Part shown: positions 2,738 through 54,692 of the stretch, piece after piece
Position numbering within the stretch: the first letter of the stretch is position 1
Layout: each line of letters begins with the position of its first letter
Assembly: GCF_003334385.1 (NCBI RefSeq)
Contig: NZ_QOWN01000024.1
DNA from: Escherichia coli
GTDB lineage: Bacteria; Pseudomonadota; Gammaproteobacteria; Enterobacterales; Enterobacteriaceae
DNA: 64,000 nucleotides
Reading direction: 5' to 3' (one strand)
The notes under the pieces: generated by a model
Database searches by the model: none
Seen by the model: the letters and a program-made list of their open reading frames with translations, nothing else
Told to the model about the DNA's origin: nothing
Program-made: the position numbers and the translations under genes

Positions 2738-2866
2738 GCCTGATGCGCTGGGCAACAAAACCTGTTGAAATTATTGCTTTTGTAGGCCGGATAAGGCGTT
2801 TACGCCGCATCAGGCATCTGAGCATGATGCCTGATGCGGCGCTGGTCGCGTCTTATCAGGCCTACG
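2738..2866. repeat. REP/BIME palindromic element cluster
   Basis: gtaggccggataaggcgtttacgccgcatcaggc and inverted copy gcctgatgcggcgctggtcgcgtcttatcaggcctac downstream of hemN. Confidence 0.8.
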
Positions 2867-3120: not shown

Positions 3121-4530
3121 TCACTCCATCCCCAGCTCTTTTAACTTACGCGTCAGAGTGTTGCGGCCCCAGCCGAGTAGCCGCGCCGCTTCCTGTTTAT
3201 GCCCCTGCGTATGTCGCAACGCGGTCGTCAGTAACGTCCGCTCCAGCTCTGGCTGCGCTTCGGAAAGCAGATTTTGATGACCGGAACGTAGCGCTCTGTC
3301 TGCCCACTGCGCAAGAAGCGTCGCCCAACTGTCCGGTTGCATTTGCGAAGTACTCTCCGCAACCGTTGATTCAAACAGTTCGCCAGGCAAATCCTGAATC
3401 AACACTTCCTGTCCGGCAGCCATTACCGTTAGCCAGCGGCAGGTGTTTTCCAGCTGGCGCACGTTGCCTGGCCACGCCAGACGCGTCAACGCGGCTTCGG
3501 TTTCCGGATGCAGCAACTTCGCTTCTACGCCCAGTTCTCGCGCGGCAACCTGTAAAAAATGGCGCGCCAGGCGGGGAATATCTTCCCGACGCTCACGCAG
3601 CGGCGGCAGATGAACGCGGATAACGTTCAGGCGGTGGAACAGATCCTCACGGAACTTACCTTCCTGCACCCGCTGTTCGAGATTCTGGTGAGTGGCAGCG
3701 ATAATCCGCACATCCACTTTCACCGGCGCATAGCCGCCAACGCGGTAAAACTGGCCGTCTGCCAGCACGCGCAGCAAACGCGTCTGCACATCCAGCGGCA
3801 TATCGCCAATTTCATCGAGAAATAATGTACCGCCATCAGCCTGTTCAAAACGCCCCTGACGAATGGTATTCGCGCCGGTAAACGCGCCTTTCTCGTGACC
3901 AAACAGTTCTGATTCGATCAAATCCTTCGGGATAGCCGCCATATTCAGAGCGATAAATGGCGCTTTGGCTCGCGGACTGTGGCGATGCAGGGCATGAGCG
4001 ACCAGTTCTTTACCGGTGCCGGATTCGCCGTTAATCAGCACGCTAATAGAAGAACGCGAAAGCCGACCGATAATACGGAACACGTCCTGCATGGCTGGCG
4101 CTTCGCCGATGATATCGGTCGTTGGGCCGTTAAGCTGAACATTACGCGGCTGCTGCTGTTCCTGGTAATGACTGATGGCGCGCTCAACCAGCGCCACGGC
4201 TTCGTCGATATCAAACGGTTTGGGCAGATAATCAAACGCCCCTTGTTGATAGGCGCTGACGGCAGCATCCAGATCGGAATGTGCGGTCATAATGATGACC
4301 GGAAGCATCGGATGGCGCTGTTTAATCTGCTTGAGCAGCGCCAGCCCGTCCATTCCCGGCATACGGATATCTGAAAGCAGCACATCCGGCGTTTTGCTCG
4401 CCAGCGCCTCCAGTACCTCCGCGCCGTTCTCAAATGTCGTACAGGTTAAACCCGCTCCAGCGAGCGCACGTTCAAGCACCCAACGGATGGAACTATCGTC
4501 ATCGACTACCCAGACTATCCCTCGTTGCAT
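3121..4530 (-). CDS. glnG: nitrogen regulation response regulator NtrC (sigma54 activator)
   Basis: ORF 3121..4590 trimmed to ATG at 4530 ([23 protein letters not shown]), 469 aa; receiver domain, AAA+ sigma54-interaction motif [11 protein letters not shown]-terminal HTH. Confidence 0.95.
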
Positions 4531-4541
4531 AAACGTCACCT

Positions 4542-5591
4542 TTATTTCCTGATAGGCAGGTAAACCGAGAACTCGGTATGCCCTGGCCAACTGGTAAATT
4601 CAATTTTGCCTGAATGCTGATCAATCAAATTACGAGCGATGGATAAGCCAAGCCCGGTGCCACCTTCGCGGCCGCTGACCATCGGGTAAAACAGCGTATC
4701 CTGCAAATGAGGCGGAATGCCTGGCCCGTTATCTTCCACATCAATCCGCGCCGCCAGCCGGTAGCGTTCGCCGTGTAAGGTCAGTTGAAACGCGGTGCGG
4801 GTACGCAGAATGATTTCACCGCCTTCCGGCCCCAGCGCCTGTAGCGCATTGCGCACAATATTCAGCAAGACCTGTTCAATTTGATCCGGGTCGTGCGCCA
4901 GTTCTGGCAGGCTGGGGTCGTAATCACGAATCAACCGCACGTTGTCCGGCAGTTCCATCGACACCAGCGTTACCACGCGTTCAGCCACTTTGTGAATACT
5001 TTCGGTAACGCGCGTACCGGGCAGCTGCGGCCCCAACAGACGGTCGACCAGATTTCGCAGCCGGTCCGCCTGTTCGATAATCACTTTGGTATATTCGAGT
5101 AGTGATGGGTCAGGTAACGCTTTGCTGAGCAGCTGCGCCGCGCCACGTAAACCGCCAAGCGGATTTTTAATCTCATGTGCCAGGCCGCGCACTAAATCAC
5201 GGGCAGCAACCTGCTGGGCGTGCTGTAGCTGTTCCTGACTTAAGCGGCGCTGGTTATCCATCGGAGCCATCTCCAGCAGGATCATGCCGTCCGGCATACG
5301 CTGGGCCGTCACAGAAAGGATATGCGAGCGCCCGTCGATGACCAGCGTCACTTCGTTATCGGTAAAACCTTGCCCCGCCTCCAGACTTTCTTGCATCAGC
5401 TCGATATTTAATGAGAAGTAGCTCAACAGTTCCGGTAACGGTGTACCAAACAATTTGCGGGAGCTTTGGGCGAGCAGTTGTTGCGCGGCGGGGTTGGCGT
5501 AATGGATCGCCAGGTTGTCATCGATTAACAAAATACTGTTAATCAGCGAGTTGAGGATCTGCCCAGCATCGGGCTGCGTGCCTGTTGCCAT
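4542..5591 (-). CDS. glnL: nitrogen regulation sensor histidine kinase NtrB
   Basis: 349-aa ORF; H-box [12 protein letters not shown]-binding G-boxes (DNGPGI, GTGLGL). Confidence 0.95.
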
Positions 5592-5678
5592 AAAGCAGTC
5601 TCCTGAACAGGTTGCACCATTTTAGTGCATTATAGCTTTTTACGGATAAAAAGCGCGAAGCATCAGAGAATTGACGGA

Positions 5679-5876
5679 GAAAAAAGCCCATGCAGAGATG
5701 GGCTACAGATAGCTGACAAACTTCACGTTGGAGAGCGACTCACCTGCTCCGGCCTACCACATCATCACCGTGTAGGCCGGATAAGACGCATTTGCGTCGC
5801 ATCCGGCGTGATGTGCTTGCCACCGATCCCAGGCCTGCCAGAGACAGGCGAAAAGTTTCCACGGCAACTAAAACAC
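5679..5876 (-). ncRNA. glnA 3'UTR, candidate GlnZ-type 3'UTR-derived sRNA
   Basis: Minus-strand hairpin gcccatctctgcatgggc plus T-run (plus coords 5680-5704) about 195 nt downstream of the glnA stop; the 3'UTR includes a REP-like palindrome. sRNA status inferred from position only. Confidence 0.3.
5751..5838. repeat. REP palindromic element(s) in glnA-glnL intergenic region
   Basis: ggcctaccacatcatcaccgtgtaggccggataagacgcatttgcgtcgcatccggcg with REP core motifs. Confidence 0.7.
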
Positions 5877-7454: not shown

Positions 7455-7512
7455 ACGTTGCACCAATATAGTGCTTCAATGGAAACATTAAGCACCATGT
7501 TGGTGCAATGAC
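7455..7512 (-). promoter_or_regulatory. NtrC enhancer binding sites upstream of glnA
   Basis: Palindromic GCACCAtgtTGGTGC at about 7495-7509 and TGCACCAatataGTGC at about 7459-7474, roughly -140 and -108 relative to glnAp2. Confidence 0.7.
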
Positions 7513-7658
7513 CTTTGGATAACCCTTTTTATGCTCCGTGAAAGCGATCACAAAGGGACTCTGCAATACTTGTTTGCGGAGGATGTTTGTGATCCTGTTT
7601 TGTAGTGCGATTAATCCGTGTACAATAACGCGCTATTTCTAATGCCTGAGGCAAAGTT

Positions 7659-9482
7659 GTGATCGAAAAATTGCGTAATATCGCCATCATCGCGCACGTA
7701 GACCATGGTAAAACTACCCTGGTAGACAAGCTGCTCCAACAATCCGGTACGTTCGACTCTCGTGCCGAAACCCAAGAGCGCGTGATGGACTCCAACGATT
7801 TGGAGAAAGAGCGTGGGATTACCATCCTCGCGAAAAACACCGCTATCAAATGGAATGATTACCGTATCAACATCGTTGATACCCCGGGGCACGCCGACTT
7901 CGGTGGTGAAGTTGAACGTGTAATGTCCATGGTAGACTCAGTGCTGCTGGTGGTTGACGCATTTGACGGCCCGATGCCGCAAACGCGCTTCGTAACCAAA
8001 AAAGCGTTTGCTTACGGCCTGAAGCCGATTGTTGTTATCAACAAAGTTGACCGCCCTGGCGCGCGTCCTGATTGGGTTGTGGATCAGGTATTCGATCTGT
8101 TCGTTAACCTCGACGCGACCGACGAGCAGCTGGACTTCCCGATCGTTTACGCTTCTGCGCTGAACGGTATCGCGGGTCTGGACCACGAAGATATGGCGGA
8201 AGACATGACCCCGCTGTACCAGGCGATTGTTGACCACGTTCCTGCGCCGGACGTTGACCTTGACGGTCCGTTCCAGATGCAGATTTCTCAGCTCGATTAC
8301 AACAGCTATGTTGGCGTTATCGGCATTGGCCGCATCAAGCGCGGTAAAGTGAAGCCGAACCAGCAGGTCACTATCATCGATAGCGAAGGCAAAACCCGCA
8401 ACGCGAAAGTCGGTAAAGTGCTGGGCCACCTCGGTCTGGAACGTATCGAAACCGACCTGGCGGAAGCTGGCGATATCGTGGCGATCACGGGCCTGGGCGA
8501 ACTGAACATTTCTGACACCGTTTGCGACACGCAAAACGTTGAAGCGCTGCCGGCACTCTCCGTTGATGAGCCGACCGTTTCTATGTTCTTCTGCGTTAAC
8601 ACCTCGCCGTTCTGCGGTAAAGAAGGTAAGTTCGTAACGTCTCGTCAGATCCTGGATCGTCTGAACAAAGAACTGGTACACAACGTTGCGCTGCGCGTAG
8701 AAGAAACCGAAGACGCCGATGCGTTCCGCGTTTCTGGTCGTGGCGAACTGCACCTGTCTGTTCTGATCGAAAACATGCGTCGTGAAGGTTTCGAACTGGC
8801 GGTATCCCGTCCGAAAGTAATCTTCCGTGAAATCGACGGTCGTAAACAAGAGCCGTATGAAAACGTGACGCTGGACGTTGAAGAACAGCATCAGGGTTCT
8901 GTGATGCAGGCGCTGGGCGAACGTAAAGGCGACCTGAAAAACATGAATCCAGACGGTAAAGGCCGCGTACGTCTCGACTACGTGATCCCAAGCCGTGGTC
9001 TGATTGGCTTCCGTTCTGAGTTCATGACCATGACTTCCGGTACTGGTCTGCTGTACTCCACCTTCAGCCACTACGACGACGTACGTCCGGGTGAAGTGGG
9101 CCAGCGTCAGAACGGCGTACTGATCTCTAACGGTCAGGGTAAAGCGGTCGCGTTCGCGCTGTTCGGTCTGCAGGATCGCGGTAAGCTGTTCCTCGGTCAC
9201 GGTGCAGAAGTTTACGAAGGTCAGATTATCGGTATTCATAGCCGCTCTAACGACCTGACGGTAAACTGCCTGACCGGTAAGAAACTGACCAACATGCGTG
9301 CTTCCGGTACTGACGAAGCCGTTGTTCTGGTTCCGCCTATCCGCATGACTCTGGAACAAGCTCTGGAGTTCATCGATGATGACGAACTGGTAGAAGTGAC
9401 TCCAACCTCTATCCGTATTCGTAAACGTCACCTGACGGAAAACGATCGTCGTCGCGCTAACCGCGCACCGAAAGACGATTAA
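7659..9482 (+). CDS. typA: ribosome-associated translational GTPase BipA/TypA
   Basis: 607-aa ORF with GTG start; [27 protein letters not shown]-domain motifs [18 protein letters not shown]. Confidence 0.97.
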
Positions 9483-9499
9483 TTTCGTTTTTTAGTTAT

Positions 9500-9532
9500 A
9501 AAAAACCTGCCATCGCTGGCAGGTTTTTTTTT
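9500..9532 (+). terminator. rho-independent terminator after typA
   Basis: Hairpin cctgccatcgctggcagg followed by a T9 run. Confidence 0.8.
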
Positions 9533-9698
9533 ACCTGTCGTGAGCGCACACCAATGCGAGTATCTCCCTTATAAGTCTGTGATTACGTCAATAGAGAGCT
9601 TTGTCACAATTATCTGCAAAGTCATACACCGTTAATTGCTTTCTTTTTTGGCGTAAGCGTAAGATGCTTCATCTGGTTTAAACCAAAAGGATTAAACA

Positions 9699-12769: not shown

Positions 12770-12848
<79 letters not shown>

Positions 12849-32795: not shown

Positions 32796-35700
32796 TTACA
32801 CCTTTTCCACATTCACAAGGAAGGACTTAAACTCCGGCGTCTGCGTGTTCGCATCACCAACGAATGGCGTTAAAGTATTGGCAATAAAGCCTTTTTTAGC
32901 TACGCCTTCATAGCCCCAGTGAATCGGAATACCGATGGTATCGATATCTTTGCCGTTCGCTTTCAGCGTGCGAATACGTTTGGTCACCACCGCTTTGGCT
33001 TTGATATAGCCACGGTTGGAGGAGACTTTCACGGTATCGCCCTGGGCAATGCCAAGTTTATTCGCCAGCGACTCCCCGATTTCCACAAACTGCTCTGGCT
33101 GCAAAATCGCGTTCAACAGCGCGTGTTTGGTCCAGTAGTGGAAGTGCTCGGTCAGACGATAGGTGGTTCCGACATACGGGAACTTATCGGCTTTACCCAA
33201 TGCTTCGGCGTCGTCTTTAAAGATACGTGCAGCCGGGTTCGAGATAACGTTTGGATGCAGCGGGTTAGTTCCCAGCGGCGTTTCAAACGGCTCGTAGTGT
33301 TCCGGGAACGGACCTTCCGCCATCTTATCGAGGGCAAACAGACGCCCCATGCCTTCCTGCTGCATGATAAACGGCCCGACGCCGCTACCCGGAGGCGCTG
33401 CGCTGTAGTCCGGAATATCCCAGCCGGTCCACTTAGTGCCGTCCCATTTCAGCAACTGACGCTTCGGATCCCACGGGTTACCCTGCGGATCTGCGGAGGC
33501 GCGGTTATACAGAATGCGGCGGTTAAGCGGCCATGCCCATGCCCAGCCCAGCGTGTTACCGAGGCCAGACGGATCGGCGTTATCACGGCGTGCCATCTGG
33601 TTGCCTTCCGGCGTCCAGCTACCGGCGAAAATCCAGCAGCCACAGGAGGTTGTACCGTCATCGCGCAATTGGGCGAACGAACTAAGTTGTTGGCCTTTCT
33701 TGACGATAACCGCACCGGTTGCCGGATCGGTAATATCGGCCAGCGCCTTACCGTTGCTCTCCATCGCCACTTCTTCTGAAGATGGCTCATGCGGAATGGC
33801 GTAGTTCCATGTCATGTTCAGCACCTGGTCCGGGTTCGCGCCACCCCGTTCGGCATACATCTTGCGCAAGCGCAGGAAGATACCGGAGAGGATCTCGCCG
33901 TCAGTCAGCGCAATCCCCGGGGCGTCCGCACCTTTCCAGTGCCACTGTAACCAGCGACCTGAGTTAACGATAGAACCGTTCTCTTCCGCGAAGCAGGTCG
34001 ATGGCAGACGGAACACTTCGGTCTGGATCTTCGACGAGTCAACTTCGTTCAGCTCACCGTGGTTCTGCCAGAAGTTAGAGGTTTCAGTGTTCAGTGGGTC
34101 GATGGTGACGAGGAACTTCAGTTTCGACAGACAACCGATCACTTTGTTTTTGTTCGGGAATGAGGCAACAGGGTTAAAGCCCTGGCAGATATAGCCATTG
34201 ACCTTGCCCTCTTTCATCATCTCGAAGTATTGCAGGACGTCGTAGCCTTTATCCCACTTCGGCAACCAGTCAAAGCCCCAGCTATTTTCCGCCGTCGCTT
34301 TATCACCAAAGAAGGCCTTCATCATAGAGACGAAGAATTTCGGGTAGTTGCCCCAGTAGTTTACCTGGCCTTCCAGCAGCGGTTTTGGCGTGTTGGCGGT
34401 AAGGTAGGTTTGCAGATCGGTCTGCTTCTCGCTTGGCAGCGTCATGTAACCTGGCAGGCTCTGCGACAGCAGCCCCAGGTCCGTCAGCCCCTGAATATTG
34501 GAGTGACCGCGCAGGGCGTTAACGCCGCCGCCTGCCATCCCCATATTGCCGAGCAGCAGCTGGATCATCGCCATCGTACGAATGTTTTGCGCACCAACGG
34601 AGTGTTGCGTCCAGCCGAGGGCATACAGGAACGAGGCAGTTTTATCGTGAGCACTGGTTTCTGCGATGTATTCGCAGACTTTCAGGAACGCGTCTTTTGG
34701 CGTACCACAGATGTTTTCAACCACATCTGGCGTGTAGCGGGAAACGTGCTGTTTCAGCAAGTTCCACACGCAGCGCGGATGTTGCAGCGTGGTATCGCGT
34801 TTGGCGAAGCCGTTTTCGTCCAGTTCATAAGTCCAGGAGGATTTATCGTACTTGCGTTTTTCCGCGTCGTAGCCGGTGAACAGGCCATCTTCAAAGCCGT
34901 AATCCTCACGCACGATCAGGCTGGCGTTGGTATAGGCTTCGGTGTATTCGCGGTTGAATTTTTCATTGTTCAGCAGGTACAGCAATACGCCTGACAGGAA
35001 AGCAATGTCAGTACCGGAACGAATAGGGGCATAGTAGTCAGCTACCGCCGCCGTACGCGTAAAGCGAGGATCGATCACAATCAGTTTCGCGCCGTTGTGA
35101 ATTTTGGCTTCCATCGCCCAGCGGAACCCGACCGGGTGAGCTTCAGCGGCGTTACCGCCCATCACCACGACGAGGTTGGCGTTCTTGATGTCGACCCAGT
35201 GGTTGGTCATCGCACCGCGACCAAATGTTGGAGCAAGACTTGCTACCGTTGGTCCGTGTCAGACACGCGCCTGGTTGTCGACCGCGAGCATACCCAGCGC
35301 GCGGGAGAATTTTTGCGTTAAATAGCCGGTTTCGTTACTCGACGCGGAAGCACACAGCATCCCGGTGGAGAGCCAGCGGTTAACAGTCACGCCTTCGGCG
35401 TTTTGCGCAATGTAGTTAGCATCGCGGTCTTCTTTCATCAGTTTGGCGATGCGATCAAACGCCTCTTCCCAACTGATTTGCTGCCATTTATCAGAACCTG
35501 GCGCACGGTATTCCGGAAACTTCAGACGGCTTTCGGAGTGGATGAAATCCACCAGGCCAGCGCCTTTCGGACAAAGTGCACCGCGGTTGACCGGGTGATC
35601 CGGATCGCCTTCGATATGGAAGATAGATGCTTTGGCGTTTTTTGCTCCGTCACCGAGGCTGTACATCAACAGCCCACAGCCTACGGAACAATAGGTGCAG

Positions 35701-38130: not shown

Positions 38131-39636
38131 TCACCCCTTGTGAAGTAACTCCATAAATGCCTCATATCCTGTTAACCCGGCAATAACCTCTGCCGGATGC
38201 TGACACAATACGCTTGCCAGATAGCTGAATATTTTCAACTCGTGACGCGCATCGGCGGCGGCGCAGGCGATCAAGACATGGTTAATGACTTCGTTATTCA
38301 CCTCAACTGGTTGGGCGAGGGTAATAAAAAATCCACGAAAACGTCGCTCCTGTTCGCTCCAGCAATGTGGGATGGCGAGGCGATTAACAATCAGGTTTTC
38401 ACCTTCGCCTTCGCGGGCGATGATCCGTTGCGCTTCATCGGCGGTAATATGGTGTTGTGCCACTAATTGCGCACAAATTTGCCGGGTAATATGTTGCCAG
38501 CTTTCACCGCGTACATTCGAATAATGAAAACTTCCGGGGGCAGAGAAAAAACGCTCCGGTTGCTGGCGAATAAATGCCGTCGCCAGAAAATGTTTTATTT
38601 GTTCGATACCGGCAGCCGTAATGATATTTTTTACGGTGATGTAATTATTGACCGCGTCATCCAGTAAATAATGGCTGTTGTTAATGATCAATAACGGCTC
38701 AATCTCTTCGCGAATGGCAACAAGTTCGCTTAAGCTACGGGCAATAATCACCCGACAATGTAAAACATCGCGCTCAATGGCGAGCTGATTAATGGTGGCA
38801 ATCGCGTTCTGGTCCGAGAGCAAAATGATCGGCTGGCGTTCGTTTTGATGCCGCTCCAGCGCACAGGCAAAATACAAACCGATCAGATCGCTGTCGAAAA
38901 GGGGAATATCGAGCTGTTCACGCAGTAGCGTAATAAAGTGCAGACTCATATCAAAGGCCGCAGGCCAGGCGGCTTTCAGGTTATTCATGCTGCTCTGGCG
39001 GTGCTCAGCAATCCACACTGGTGCGGCAAGGCAACGTAATAAATGCCCGGTAATATTCTCAACCAGCTGCGCATCAATAATATTCAATGACGCGATGCCC
39101 GGCACCCTTTGCAGCAACCCCTGCACATTATCGGCTGAAATTACCTGCGCTTGCTGATGCTGTTTCTCTATCAAACCCGTCAGGGTTCTTACAGCGTTAT
39201 CACCAAGAAACAGACCGCTATGTTCAACGATTTGTTTTATCTCGTCACCGGGATATTGCGGCCACTCATCGGTCAGTTGATTACGCAGGGCGTAAATCGC
39301 CAGAATCAGGCTGGAGAGATAATCACCCTGCATGAGCGGCCAGCGGTGTTGGTTGTCGCAGGCCGTGGATAAATGCTGAAGGTTGTCTCGTGTTATGCCC
39401 GCCAGCGGAATTAAAAACGGATCTTTGCGCAGCAAGTTCGCCAGCAAGATAACGCGTTTCTCTTCTTCTACCATGGCAAACAGCAGATTACGCGCTTTGT
39501 CGAGATAGATGGCGTAGTTATGCGCACCGTGAGATTTCAGCACTGCTTCCAGTTCTGGCCAGATGGGATTATGCCGACGCTGATACTCTTCGTGGGCGTC
39601 GGGGTTTACCTGCATGACAAAGGCTTTGCGGATCAT
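38131..39636 (-). CDS. chimeric ORF: RhaM (L-rhamnose mutarotase) N-terminal ~57 aa fused in frame to the C-terminal ~444 aa of an FrvR-like regulator
   Basis: Starts [57 protein letters not shown] (RhaM N-terminus, SD GGAG overlapping rhaD stop); continues [17 protein letters not shown]... to a stop convergent with yiiG, where frvR ends in K-12. Confidence 0.7.
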
Positions 39637-39645
39637 GTTTGCTCC

Positions 39646-40471
39646 TTACAGCGCCAGCGCACTGGCGAGTGGCGTAACGCCGAAACGCTTGCCGAGCGCT
39701 ATCAACTCTTCACGGCTGATGGTCTGTTTCATGCCGCCCATCGAATAAACCTTCACTAATACTTGTGCTGATTTTTCTGCGGTGTCGATTAAACCGAAGA
39801 TTTCATCCAGCGTCGGTCCGCTGCCGAAGACGCCGTGGAAGGGCCACAACACCAGCGAATGTTTTTGCATCTCTTGTGCGGTCGCCTGGCCGATTTCGTC
39901 CGTGCCGGGCACCATCCACGGCAAAATGCCAACGCCATCCGGGAATACCACCAGACACTCGGTGCTGCCTTCCCACAGTTGGCGAGTGAAGACCGCGGTG
40001 TCGTTTTCAAGTACATAGGTGAGGGCGGATCAGGTTGGTGGCGTGGCAGTGCATGATCACCCGATCTTTGCCGTTGGTGGCTTTAATGCGCTCGCAGTGG
40101 GAAAGGAAGTGAGCCGGAAGTTCGGAAGTGGGGACGGCTTCGTTGGTTAACCCCCAAAGAATGTGGTAGCCCGCGCCGTCGCTGTCGACTTTTACGATGC
40201 CTAAGTTAGCCGCAGGATCAAGCTGGACGTTACGGAAGAATTTGCCCGAGCCGGTGACAATAAACGGTGTATTTGCCAGTAAAGGCATGGGCTGGCTGAG
40301 CGGGATATAGCGCGGTTGTTGGTGGAAATTGTCGTGATATGGTGCGATATCGGCGTCATCCAGGCGTAGCGTCAGGTTGCCGCCGTTGCGCTCATCCCAG
40401 CCTTTCAGCCAGGCGTCGGTGGTGGCTTTGATCATTCCCTGGACAAACCAGGACTGAGTAATGTTTTGCAT
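39646..40471 (-). pseudogene. rhaD: rhamnulose-1-phosphate aldolase, disrupted by +1 frameshift
   Basis: N-terminal frame from ATG 40471 ([32 protein letters not shown]...HCHATNLI) runs into RPHLCT-stop at 40007; the C-terminal 101 aa (..[21 protein letters not shown]...[11 protein letters not shown]) are in another frame (39646..39951). Span is 826 nt versus the 825 expected. Confidence 0.8.
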
Positions 40472-40510
40472 GTTCTGTGTTCCTGTAAATTCGGTGTTGT
40501 CGGATGCACG

Positions 40511-40735
40511 ACCCGTAGGCCGGATAAGGCGCTCGCGCCGCATCCGGCAATCAATGCCTGATGCGACGCTGTCGCGTCTTATCAGGCCTACAACTATTGC
40601 CGACCTGTAGGCCGGATAAGGCACTTGTGCCGCATCCGGCAATCAATGCCTGATGCGACGCTGTCGCGTCTTATCAGGCCTACAACTGTTGCCGACCCGT
40701 AGGCCGGATAAGGCGCTCGCGCCGCATCCGGCAGT
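40511..40735. repeat. BIME array: about 2.5 tandem copies of a ~100-bp REP-containing unit
   Basis: Unit gtaggccggataaggcgctcgcgccgcatccggcaatcaatgcctgatgcgacgctgtcgcgtcttatcaggcctacaac(t/a)(a/g)ttgccgac repeated between rhaA stop and rhaD start. Confidence 0.9.
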
Positions 40736-40737
40736 GT

Positions 40738-43750
<3,013 letters not shown>

Positions 43751-49520: not shown

Positions 49521-49606
49521 TGTAGGCCTGATAAGACGCTATCAGCGTCGCATCAGGCATCCTGCTCAAATGCCTGATGCGGCGTAAACGCCTTATCCTG
49601 CCTGCA
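49521..49606. repeat. REP palindromic elements
   Basis: gtaggcctgataagacgctatcagcgtcgcatcaggc and gcctgatgcggcgtaaacgccttatcc between convergent yiiM and cpxA. Confidence 0.8.
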
Positions 49607-54584: not shown

Positions 54585-54692
54585 TGCCTGATGCGCTTCG
54601 CTTATCAGGCCTACATGAATTCTGCAATTTATTGAATTTGCAAACTTTTGTAGGCCGGATAAGGCGTTCGCGCCGCATCCGGCATGGACAAA
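54585..54692. repeat. REP palindromic elements
   Basis: atgcctgatgcgcttcgcttatcaggcctac ... gtaggccggataaggcgttcgcgccgcatccggc between pfkA and sbp. Confidence 0.8.

Follow-up and report, generated by a model that had tools for sequence, protein, structure and literature searches.

What is the repeated DNA that separates rhaA from rhaD in this Escherichia coli genome, and does it do anything for the rhamnose genes on either side of it? The window, by which we mean the whole 64-kb stretch of DNA that was analyzed, carries rhaB (41994-43463, from its ORF translation), rhaA, and rhaD, all on the minus strand, and the two genes flanking the repeat were identified as rhaA and rhaD from their ORF translations and the RefSeq annotation of matching genomes. 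An 801-nt query found matches in all 5,426 complete E. coli RefSeq genomes, at a median of 9 places per genome, with the region itself matching annotated rhaD/rhaA; strain H2 was 100% identical to the window over the full 801 nt. The rhaA-rhaD intergenic gap measures 266 nt (40472-40737). Tandem Repeats Finder reported one array at 40509-40733, with a period of 92, 2.4 copies, 93% matches, 0 indels, and a score of 415, and a gap-free repeat search resolved two full copies (40509-40600 and 40601-40692, 95% identical) followed by a partial third copy of the 92-bp unit, the match of which was confined to its first ~41 nt. The first-pass annotation had recognized a REP/BIME array at 40511-40735, with ~2.5 copies of a ~100-bp unit filling the entire gap. 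Its location was correct to within a few bases, its copy number agreed with the 2.4 copies reported here, the tandem periodicity that it proposed to check by self-comparison was present (period 92), and its recognition of the element was confirmed by REP dissection and Y/Z2 typing. Two details required correction: the real unit is 92 bp, and the REP array proper (40515-40732) does not occupy the whole gap, leaving out the unique 43-nt rhaD leader (40472-40514) and the 5 nt that follow the rhaA stop.

On the minus strand, in the order in which the mRNA is read, the gap consists of TAA, ACACT, Y, 15 nt, Z2, ATTGATT, Y, 15 nt, Z2, ATTGATT, Y, leader, and ATG. The rhaA stop codon (TAA, 40738-40740, minus strand) closes the rhaA ORF at 40738-42003, as given by the ORF list and the RefSeq annotation of strain H2. 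REP 1, numbered in mRNA order, is a Y-type unit of 34 nt (40699-40732, plus strand) that matches the Y reference at 31/35 positions and reads 5'-GTAG... on the plus strand and ...CTAC on the mRNA. The stem of REP 1 begins 5 nt past the rhaA TAA (4 nt with the conserved leading T included); its loop is of the 'edge' variant (GCGCGAGCGC), and its RNA hairpin, with a single-base mismatch in the stem, has a predicted energy of -21.3 kcal/mol. A 15-nt linker (40684-40698; GGGTCGGCAACAGTT on the mRNA), placed on the GTAG/CTAC side of the REPs, leads to REP 2, a Z2-type unit of 36 nt (40648-40683, minus strand) that matches the Z2 reference at 35/37 positions, carries its 5'-GTAG... on the minus (mRNA) strand, and is predicted to fold at -21.9 kcal/mol (z = -5.5). 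On the REP side opposite GTAG, a 7-nt short linker (40641-40647; ATTGATT on the mRNA, AATCAAT on the plus strand) joins REP 2 to REP 3, a 34-nt Y-type unit (40607-40640, plus strand) with the 'internal' loop variant GCACAAGTGC and a predicted hairpin energy of -20.0 kcal/mol. The same dissection and typing then placed a second 15-nt linker (40592-40606; AGGTCGGCAATAGTT on the mRNA), REP 4 (Z2 type, 36 nt, 40556-40591, minus strand, identical to REP 2), a second 7-nt linker (40549-40555; ATTGATT on the mRNA), and REP 5 (Y type, 34 nt, 40515-40548, plus strand, 'edge' variant, identical to REP 1). Of the Y REPs, the outer pair has one loop variant in common and the inner one has the other, and linkers of the same kind are either constant or show differences at two positions. 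Beyond REP 5 lies the unique 43-nt rhaD leader (40472-40514, minus strand; GGGTCGTGCATCCGACAACACCGAATTTACAGGAACACAGAAC on the mRNA), which is outside the repeat, contains an AGGA Shine-Dalgarno-like motif, and has a tail common to the 1-, 5-, and 9-REP alleles; it is followed by the rhaD start codon (ATG, 40469-40471, minus strand; ORF list and RefSeq annotation).

The rhaA-rhaD repeat is a BIME-2 of five REPs, Y-Z2-Y-Z2-Y, built from the unit [Y + 15 nt + Z2 + 7 nt]. The five REPs alternate in orientation (Y> <Z2 Y> <Z2 Y> on the mRNA strand), all of them carry GTAG/CTAC, and their hairpins show the single- or double-base internal mismatch that the definition of a REP requires. Typing against the reference REPs quoted in PMC11208160 gave 30-31/35 matches for the Y units and 35/37 for the Z2 units. 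With 14 occurrences of the 14-nt REP head GTAGGCCKGATAAG in the 64-kb window where 0.02 would be expected, an excess far greater than chance allows, the units are members of a dispersed family, and the array is wholly extragenic, lying between the rhaA stop and the rhaD start. A BIME-2 is described as y + z2 REPs in tandem copies with a short linker and a copy number that varies among strains (PMC3333891); here the 92-nt unit is present 2.4 times, its linkers measure 7 and 15 nt, and the REPs number 1, 3, 5, 7, or 9 across strains, a variability typical of the BIME-2 family.

Two related identities were considered and set aside. A BIME-1 element is a single-copy Y + Z1 pair, and IHF binds to its long conserved L linker (PMC3333891). 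Like the window array, BIME-1 elements (RIP/RIB) are formed by inverted REPs outside genes, but they differ in having Z1 REPs, a long IHF-binding linker, and a single copy, whereas the window has Z2 REPs, linkers of 7/15 nt, and tandem repetition. The 35/37 match to Z2 over the full 36 nt, the linker lengths, the tandem repetition, and the lack of any match to the IHF consensus WATCAANNNNTTR (zero in a consensus scan of 40472-40737) ruled out a BIME-1, and the IHF binding that had been suggested for the array, a trait conferred on BIME-1 by its long L linker, is not supported. A CRISPR array, which the earlier reading had already rejected for want of unique spacers, was likewise ruled out: every inter-unit sequence is itself repeated, with no difference between Z2 REPs 2 and 4 and with near-constant linkers. 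The likeness extends to regularly spaced palindromic repeats in an intergenic region; the window array differs in having no leader or cas genes, in being flanked by rha genes, and in a unit that belongs to the dispersed REP family.

How variable the element is within the species was assessed from gap lengths, measured from the match span of a query made of 300 nt of rhaD and 300 nt of rhaA. These were taken for 59 of the 5,426 complete E. coli genomes, chosen at even steps down the BLAST ranking, so that the percentages are rough. Single-REP gaps of 82/92 nt accounted for 25% of the 59 genomes and 3-REP gaps of 174-184 nt for 19%, while 5-REP gaps of the window type (266/276 nt) made up 15%, 7-REP gaps (358 nt) 3%, and 9-REP gaps of the K-12 type (448-460 nt) 22%. 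The remaining class, a 241-nt gap also seen in 15% of the sample, has a single Y REP and, after it, an unrelated 169-nt insert that matched no family in an Rfam scan. Gaps of 82, 174, 266, 358, and 450 nt form exact 92-nt steps; dissection of those of 82, 174, 266, and 450 nt gave 1 (Y), 3, 5, and 9 REPs, respectively, and some alleles have a leader 10 nt longer. The 450-nt K-12 gap contains nine REPs with the same linkers and unique leader as the window, and deleting from it one contiguous 184-nt block (two units) reproduces the window gap exactly; owing to the repetition, the deletion can be placed at 78 equivalent positions. The expectation that copy number varies by strain was thereby upheld at this very locus.

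The tempo of this variation is evident from genomes in which the 600-nt flanks are 100% identical to those of the window and gaps of 82, 266, 358, 448, and 450 nt nevertheless all occur, indicating that copy number changes faster than point substitutions accumulate. The exact 92-nt steps and the 184-nt block difference point to unequal recombination or replication slippage between the repeats as the route by which units would be gained and lost; recombination mediated by TnpA(REP)/RAYT is a published alternative (PMC3333891). Because ~25% of the sampled E. coli carry a single REP and ~15% a REP plus an insert, a multi-REP array is dispensable. The repeat is a VNTR-like marker, varying in length among strains, and its units may be miscounted during assembly.

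The array is also a documented site of gyrase action in another strain. Table DS3 of the Topo-seq study (PMC6379681) lists, for a W3110 (K-12) derivative, the entry 'BIMEs2 3543085-3543486, 401 bp, rhaA>-rhaD>', with in vivo gyrase sites numbering 4 under Cfx (ciprofloxacin), 2 under Rif+Cfx (Rif, rifampicin), 1 with microcin B17, and 0 with oxolinic acid. Among the BIME-2 entries examined in that table, most have no cleavage sites, and the study describes cleavage sites as over-represented in a subset of BIME-2, y REPs as cut far more often than z2 REPs, and the cleavage signal as persisting or rising when transcription is blocked (PMC6379681). The gyrase association raised in the first-pass annotation is, accordingly, on record for the 9-REP W3110 (K-12) allele of rhaA-rhaD (PMC6379681, table DS3). 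By analogy with other REPs, gyrase likely also binds the DNA of the 5-REP allele in the window.

The effects of the array on the mRNA were approached through site scans, predicted folds, and comparison with better-studied REPs. A scan of 40000-41200 found no sigma-70-like promoter and no intrinsic terminator on either strand, and the array should therefore be transcribed within the rhaBAD mRNA. Its transcript is predicted to be highly structured: the 301-nt intergenic transcript folded at -144 kcal/mol (z = -7.4), single REPs at -20 to -22 kcal/mol, and a Y+Z2 pair into a long hairpin of -54.6 kcal/mol. The most suitable experimental analogue is REP325, which was described in a 2026 preprint as limiting downstream transcription ~8-10-fold, partly in a Rho-dependent manner, and as stabilizing the upstream mRNA (10.64898/2026.03.23.713779). 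Tandem gene pairs separated by REPs had raised upstream/downstream ratios genome-wide, with wide scatter, and the same preprint, in which the rha genes are not mentioned, described REP effects as context-dependent and terminal REPs as generally not lengthening mRNA half-lives (10.64898/2026.03.23.713779).

By likeness to REP325 and other REPs, the array likely protects the upstream part of the rhaBAD mRNA and partly attenuates transcription into rhaD. REP hairpins, or the long Y:Z2 hairpins, would block 3'->5' exonucleases and so protect the rhaBA segment, and the REPs may in addition partly attenuate transcription into rhaD in a manner that we propose to be Rho-dependent, since the hairpins have no U-tract; the outcome would be an expression skewed toward the upstream genes, rhaBA over rhaD. 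The earlier statement that BIME arrays can stabilize upstream mRNA corresponds to a documented property of REPs elsewhere, and its extension to rhaBA versus rhaD is by analogy. A further effect is suggested by position. According to Liang et al. (2015), as summarized in PMC12306157, a REP that lies <16 nt from a stop codon causes ribosomes to stall at termination and reduces the expression of the upstream gene. The 4-5 nt spacing falls within this range, and the first REP past the rhaA stop would thus be expected to stall ribosomes and lower rhaA expression.

Collectively, our favored explanation is a resident BIME-2 of the rhaBAD operon, the units of which are gained and lost, which is associated with gyrase, and which probably affects the mRNA in the ways proposed by analogy; we assign this explanation as a whole a probability of about 0.85. 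The alternative that fares best shares the identity of the element and differs only on selection, and so it partly overlaps with the favored explanation: a selfish or neutral REP/REPIN cluster without a selected function, seeded once and then expanding and contracting through slippage, unequal crossing-over, or RAYT activity, with the gyrase and mRNA effects being incidental. The spread of 1-9 REPs even among genomes with identical 600-nt flanks is what such a cluster would produce, as is the persistence of strains (~25% of the sampled genomes) that keep one REP and of others (~15%) with a different insert. TnpA(REP) recombines BIMEs in vitro, linker and copy variation is general for BIME-2 (PMC3333891), and in one strain an IS621 copy has settled inside the array, with the flanking genes not destroyed. 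Against a purely neutral cluster, every dissected allele keeps at least one Y REP 4-5 nt past the rhaA stop, gyrase cleaves the W3110 (K-12) array in vivo (PMC6379681), and REP-separated tandem gene pairs show biased expression genome-wide (10.64898/2026.03.23.713779). We regard the absence of any selected function as a real possibility, though one that we lean against.

At the other extreme, the copy number of the REPs (1-9) might itself be the adaptive feature, serving as a heritable and fast-evolving dial on the RhaB/RhaA-to-RhaD ratio and possibly, via gyrase, on local supercoiling, with the invariant Y REP acting as a brake on RhaA translation. Such a dial is compatible with our data, as alleles differ between identical flanks and REP325 exerts effects of an order of magnitude, and, if true, it would mean that flux is tuned at the rhamnulose-1-phosphate and lactaldehyde steps with promoters and coding sequence left untouched. 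This proposal is, on balance, unlikely. The natural series of 1-9 REPs in an inducible operon would, in any case, be a handy test bed for the ongoing debate over whether REPs are stabilizers, attenuators, or translation brakes.

Returning to the resident BIME-2, its units attract a further reading, namely that the array is a naRNA4-like cluster of nucleoid-associated RNAs that binds HU and condenses the chromosome, as proposed for REP325. The Rfam family RF02564 (naRNA4) matched the array at 40518-40588 and 40610-40680 scoring 77 and 76.6 bits where the family's gathering score is 59.5, and REP325 follows the same plan, with 77-nt Y-linker-Z2 units plus a spacer (PMC4550694). These matches are on the plus strand only; those on the transcribed minus strand (56.5 and 53.2 bits) remained under the gathering score. 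Direct comparison with REP325 explained this bias: relative to transcription the array is inverted, so that the mRNA reading of REP325 falls on the antisense strand of the rha array, and the modeled orientation of naRNA4 is antisense to rhaBAD, where the scan of 40000-41200 found no promoter-like site. The family also matched unrelated BIME pairs elsewhere in the window (2785-2862 and 49525-49602), showing that RF02564 matches flag generic Y/Z2 pairs and are not evidence for an RNA gene. Moreover, REP325/naRNA4 had no measurable effect on nucleoid compaction in the recent preprint (10.64898/2026.03.23.713779); Adhya is an author of both this preprint and the 2015 naRNA4 paper. On the basis of strand orientation, the generic matches elsewhere, and these recent negative data, a naRNA4 gene at rhaA-rhaD was rejected as very improbable.

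It is still less probable that the hairpins act as an intrinsic, Rho-independent terminator or insulator that leaves rhaD as a separate unit with its own promoter. Strong GC-rich hairpins do lie directly 3' of rhaA, but none is accompanied by a U-tract, and this arrangement was rejected because the scan of 40000-41200 was empty, with 0 terminator-like and 0 sigma-70-like sites. Promoter activity is said to have been found by Moralejo et al. in 1993 upstream of rhaB only. Equally remote is an assembly artefact in which the tandem repeat was collapsed or expanded, for although tandem 92-bp repeats can mis-assemble from short reads and the adjacent single-base frameshift in rhaD could be a sequencing error, complete genomes carry the 266-nt 5-REP allele, either without a difference over 801 nt (strain H2) or with one mismatch (SCU-104), and ~15% of the 59-genome sample falls in the 266/276-nt length class.

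The setting of this resident BIME-2 in the window has peculiarities of its own. The frameshift in rhaD noted in the first-pass annotation was verified by alignment to strain H2 together with the sequence itself: one extra C at 40027 (minus strand; ATC-C-GCC), outside the repeat, splits rhaD into ORFs at 40007-40471 and 39646-39951. Further downstream, collinearity with H2 and K-12 ends below ~39466, and a truncated rhaM continues in frame into an frvR-like ORF (38131-39636). This rhaM/frvR-like junction is shared with only one of the 5,426 complete E. coli genomes, that of SCU-104, in which rhaD is intact and the 5-REP gap differs from that of the window by one mismatch. Judged from the sequence, the rhamnose pathway looks to be decaying in the lineage of the window, and with rhaD frameshifted and rhaM truncated, any regulatory effect of the array on rhaD is probably moot here.

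A separate observation concerns the IS621 copy mentioned above. In strain WP2-W18-ESBL-08, IS621 lies inside the rhaA-rhaD BIME, where its junctions map to ATCAGGCCT^AC within a Z2 REP tail and the inserted segment measures 1,279 nt by junction arithmetic. The bridge-RNA recombinase of IS621 naturally targets ATCAGGCCTAC (PMC11208160), a sequence that both Z2 REPs of the window carry on the plus strand, at 40581-40591 (REP 4) and 40673-40683 (REP 2).

Descriptions of REP and BIME-2 elements go back to the 1980s and 1990s, and the window array is a shorter allele of the rhaA-rhaD BIME-2 already catalogued in K-12, so the discovery value at rhaA-rhaD is small. The practical value lies in annotation, where the repeat should be called neither a CRISPR array nor, despite its naRNA4 matches, an sRNA gene. 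The K-12 record NC_000913.3 gives only CDS features over the rhaA-rhaD stretch, and a full-text literature search found no paper joining rhaA and rhaD with 'repetitive extragenic palindromic'.

The closest known system is the K-12/W3110 BIME-2 at the same locus, which has the same Y/Z2 types, linkers, and 92-nt unit as the window; K-12 differs in having 9 REPs in a 450-nt gap compared with 5 REPs in 266 nt, and the window differs in its frameshifted rhaD. With REPINs, the substrates of RAYTs, the inverted Y/Z2 pairs share the doublet form, the GTAG, and the stem mismatch, and TnpA(REP) requires both the GTAG tetranucleotide and a stem mismatch for binding and cleavage (PMC3333891); unlike a REPtron, the array has no tnpA(REP) gene adjoining it. 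REP325, the BIME-2 between yjdM and yjdN (naRNA1-6), resembles the rha array in being composed of tandem Y/Z2 pairs between co-transcribed genes. It differs in dimensions, with a period of 100, a 13-nt linker, a 17-nt spacer, and 12 REPs, compared with a period of 92, 7/15-nt linkers, and 5 REPs at rha. Counted from the sequence, its first REP lies ~16 nt past the yjdM stop, versus 4-5 nt past that of rhaA. The orientation is opposite as well, the GTAG-Y...Z2-CTAC reading being on the mRNA in REP325 and on the antisense strand in rha, and quantitative extrapolation from REP325 to rha is consequently uncertain. REP325, as a reported attenuator and stabilizer of upstream mRNA, is the best functional model available for the rha array.

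The rhaD gene, encoded on the minus strand, was frameshifted by one additional C at position 40027 of the window (ATC-C-GCC), after the residues ...HCHATNLI, leaving two open reading frames at 40007-40471 and 39646-39951. In two E. coli strains carrying the same BIME allele as the window, H2 and SCU-104, rhaD was unbroken (825 nt). Judged from the sequence, the extra C may equally be genuine or have arisen through an error in sequencing. At 38131-39636, an open reading frame was also observed in which rhaM breaks off after approximately 57 codons and continues in frame into an frvR-like sequence, with the junction near 39466. This in-frame fusion implies a deletion spanning the rhaM 3′ end to the frvR 5′ end, by which the rhaM 3′ end, frvA, frvB, frvX, and the frvR 5′ end would have been lost. 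When 5,426 complete E. coli genomes were compared, SCU-104 (NZ_CP053284.1) alone shared the junction, and its annotation lists both junction fragments (rhaM and frvR) as pseudogenes.

Further REP/BIME sites in the window were located at 2782-2865, 5772-5785, 12812-12825, 30064-30126, 49522-49602, and 54601-54663. The Rfam model naRNA4 matched above its gathering score at 2785-2862 (plus strand) and 49525-49602 (minus strand), and ES036 (CssrF) matched at 54607-54648. Other Rfam matches above the gathering score were the CsrC sRNA (291-544; 277.9 bits), ES222 (7470-7577), STnc370 (9467-9535), and, on the minus strand, the selenocysteine insertion element SECIS_3 (35206-35264), consistent with the gene neighborhood expected of a K-12-like genome.

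An alternative rhaD-rhaA gap of 241 nt, found in about 15% of sampled E. coli, consists of a single Y REP and, after it, a 169-nt insert of unrelated sequence (600-768 in the locus extracted from NZ_CP128931.1). The insert contains many palindromes of the GGGTGAGGG/CCCTCACCC type, and no Rfam family was found for it; we presume that it resembles a "box C"-type element. At full length, it was detected in 787 of the 5,426 genomes, and its palindromic module of ~55 nt is a low-copy dispersed repeat, with a median of two places per genome.

The rhaD/rhaA flank query had no match in 63 of the 5,426 genomes, some of which may be laboratory strains deleted for rhaBAD. In approximately 23 genomes, the two flanks were split beyond the joining distance, and the one such genome that was inspected carried an IS621 insertion. 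IS621 is an IS110-family element with a bridge-RNA recombinase. In the inspected genome, that of strain WP2-W18-ESBL-08 (NZ_AP021933.1), IS621 lies within the rhaD-rhaA BIME, at about 4521-5799 of the extracted locus, and its insertion point in a Z2 REP is precisely ATCAGGCCT^AC. The 11-mer target is present, at 40581-40591 and 40673-40683, in both Z2 REPs of the window, and the insertion site in WP2-W18-ESBL-08 matches the published natural target of IS621 (PMC11208160).
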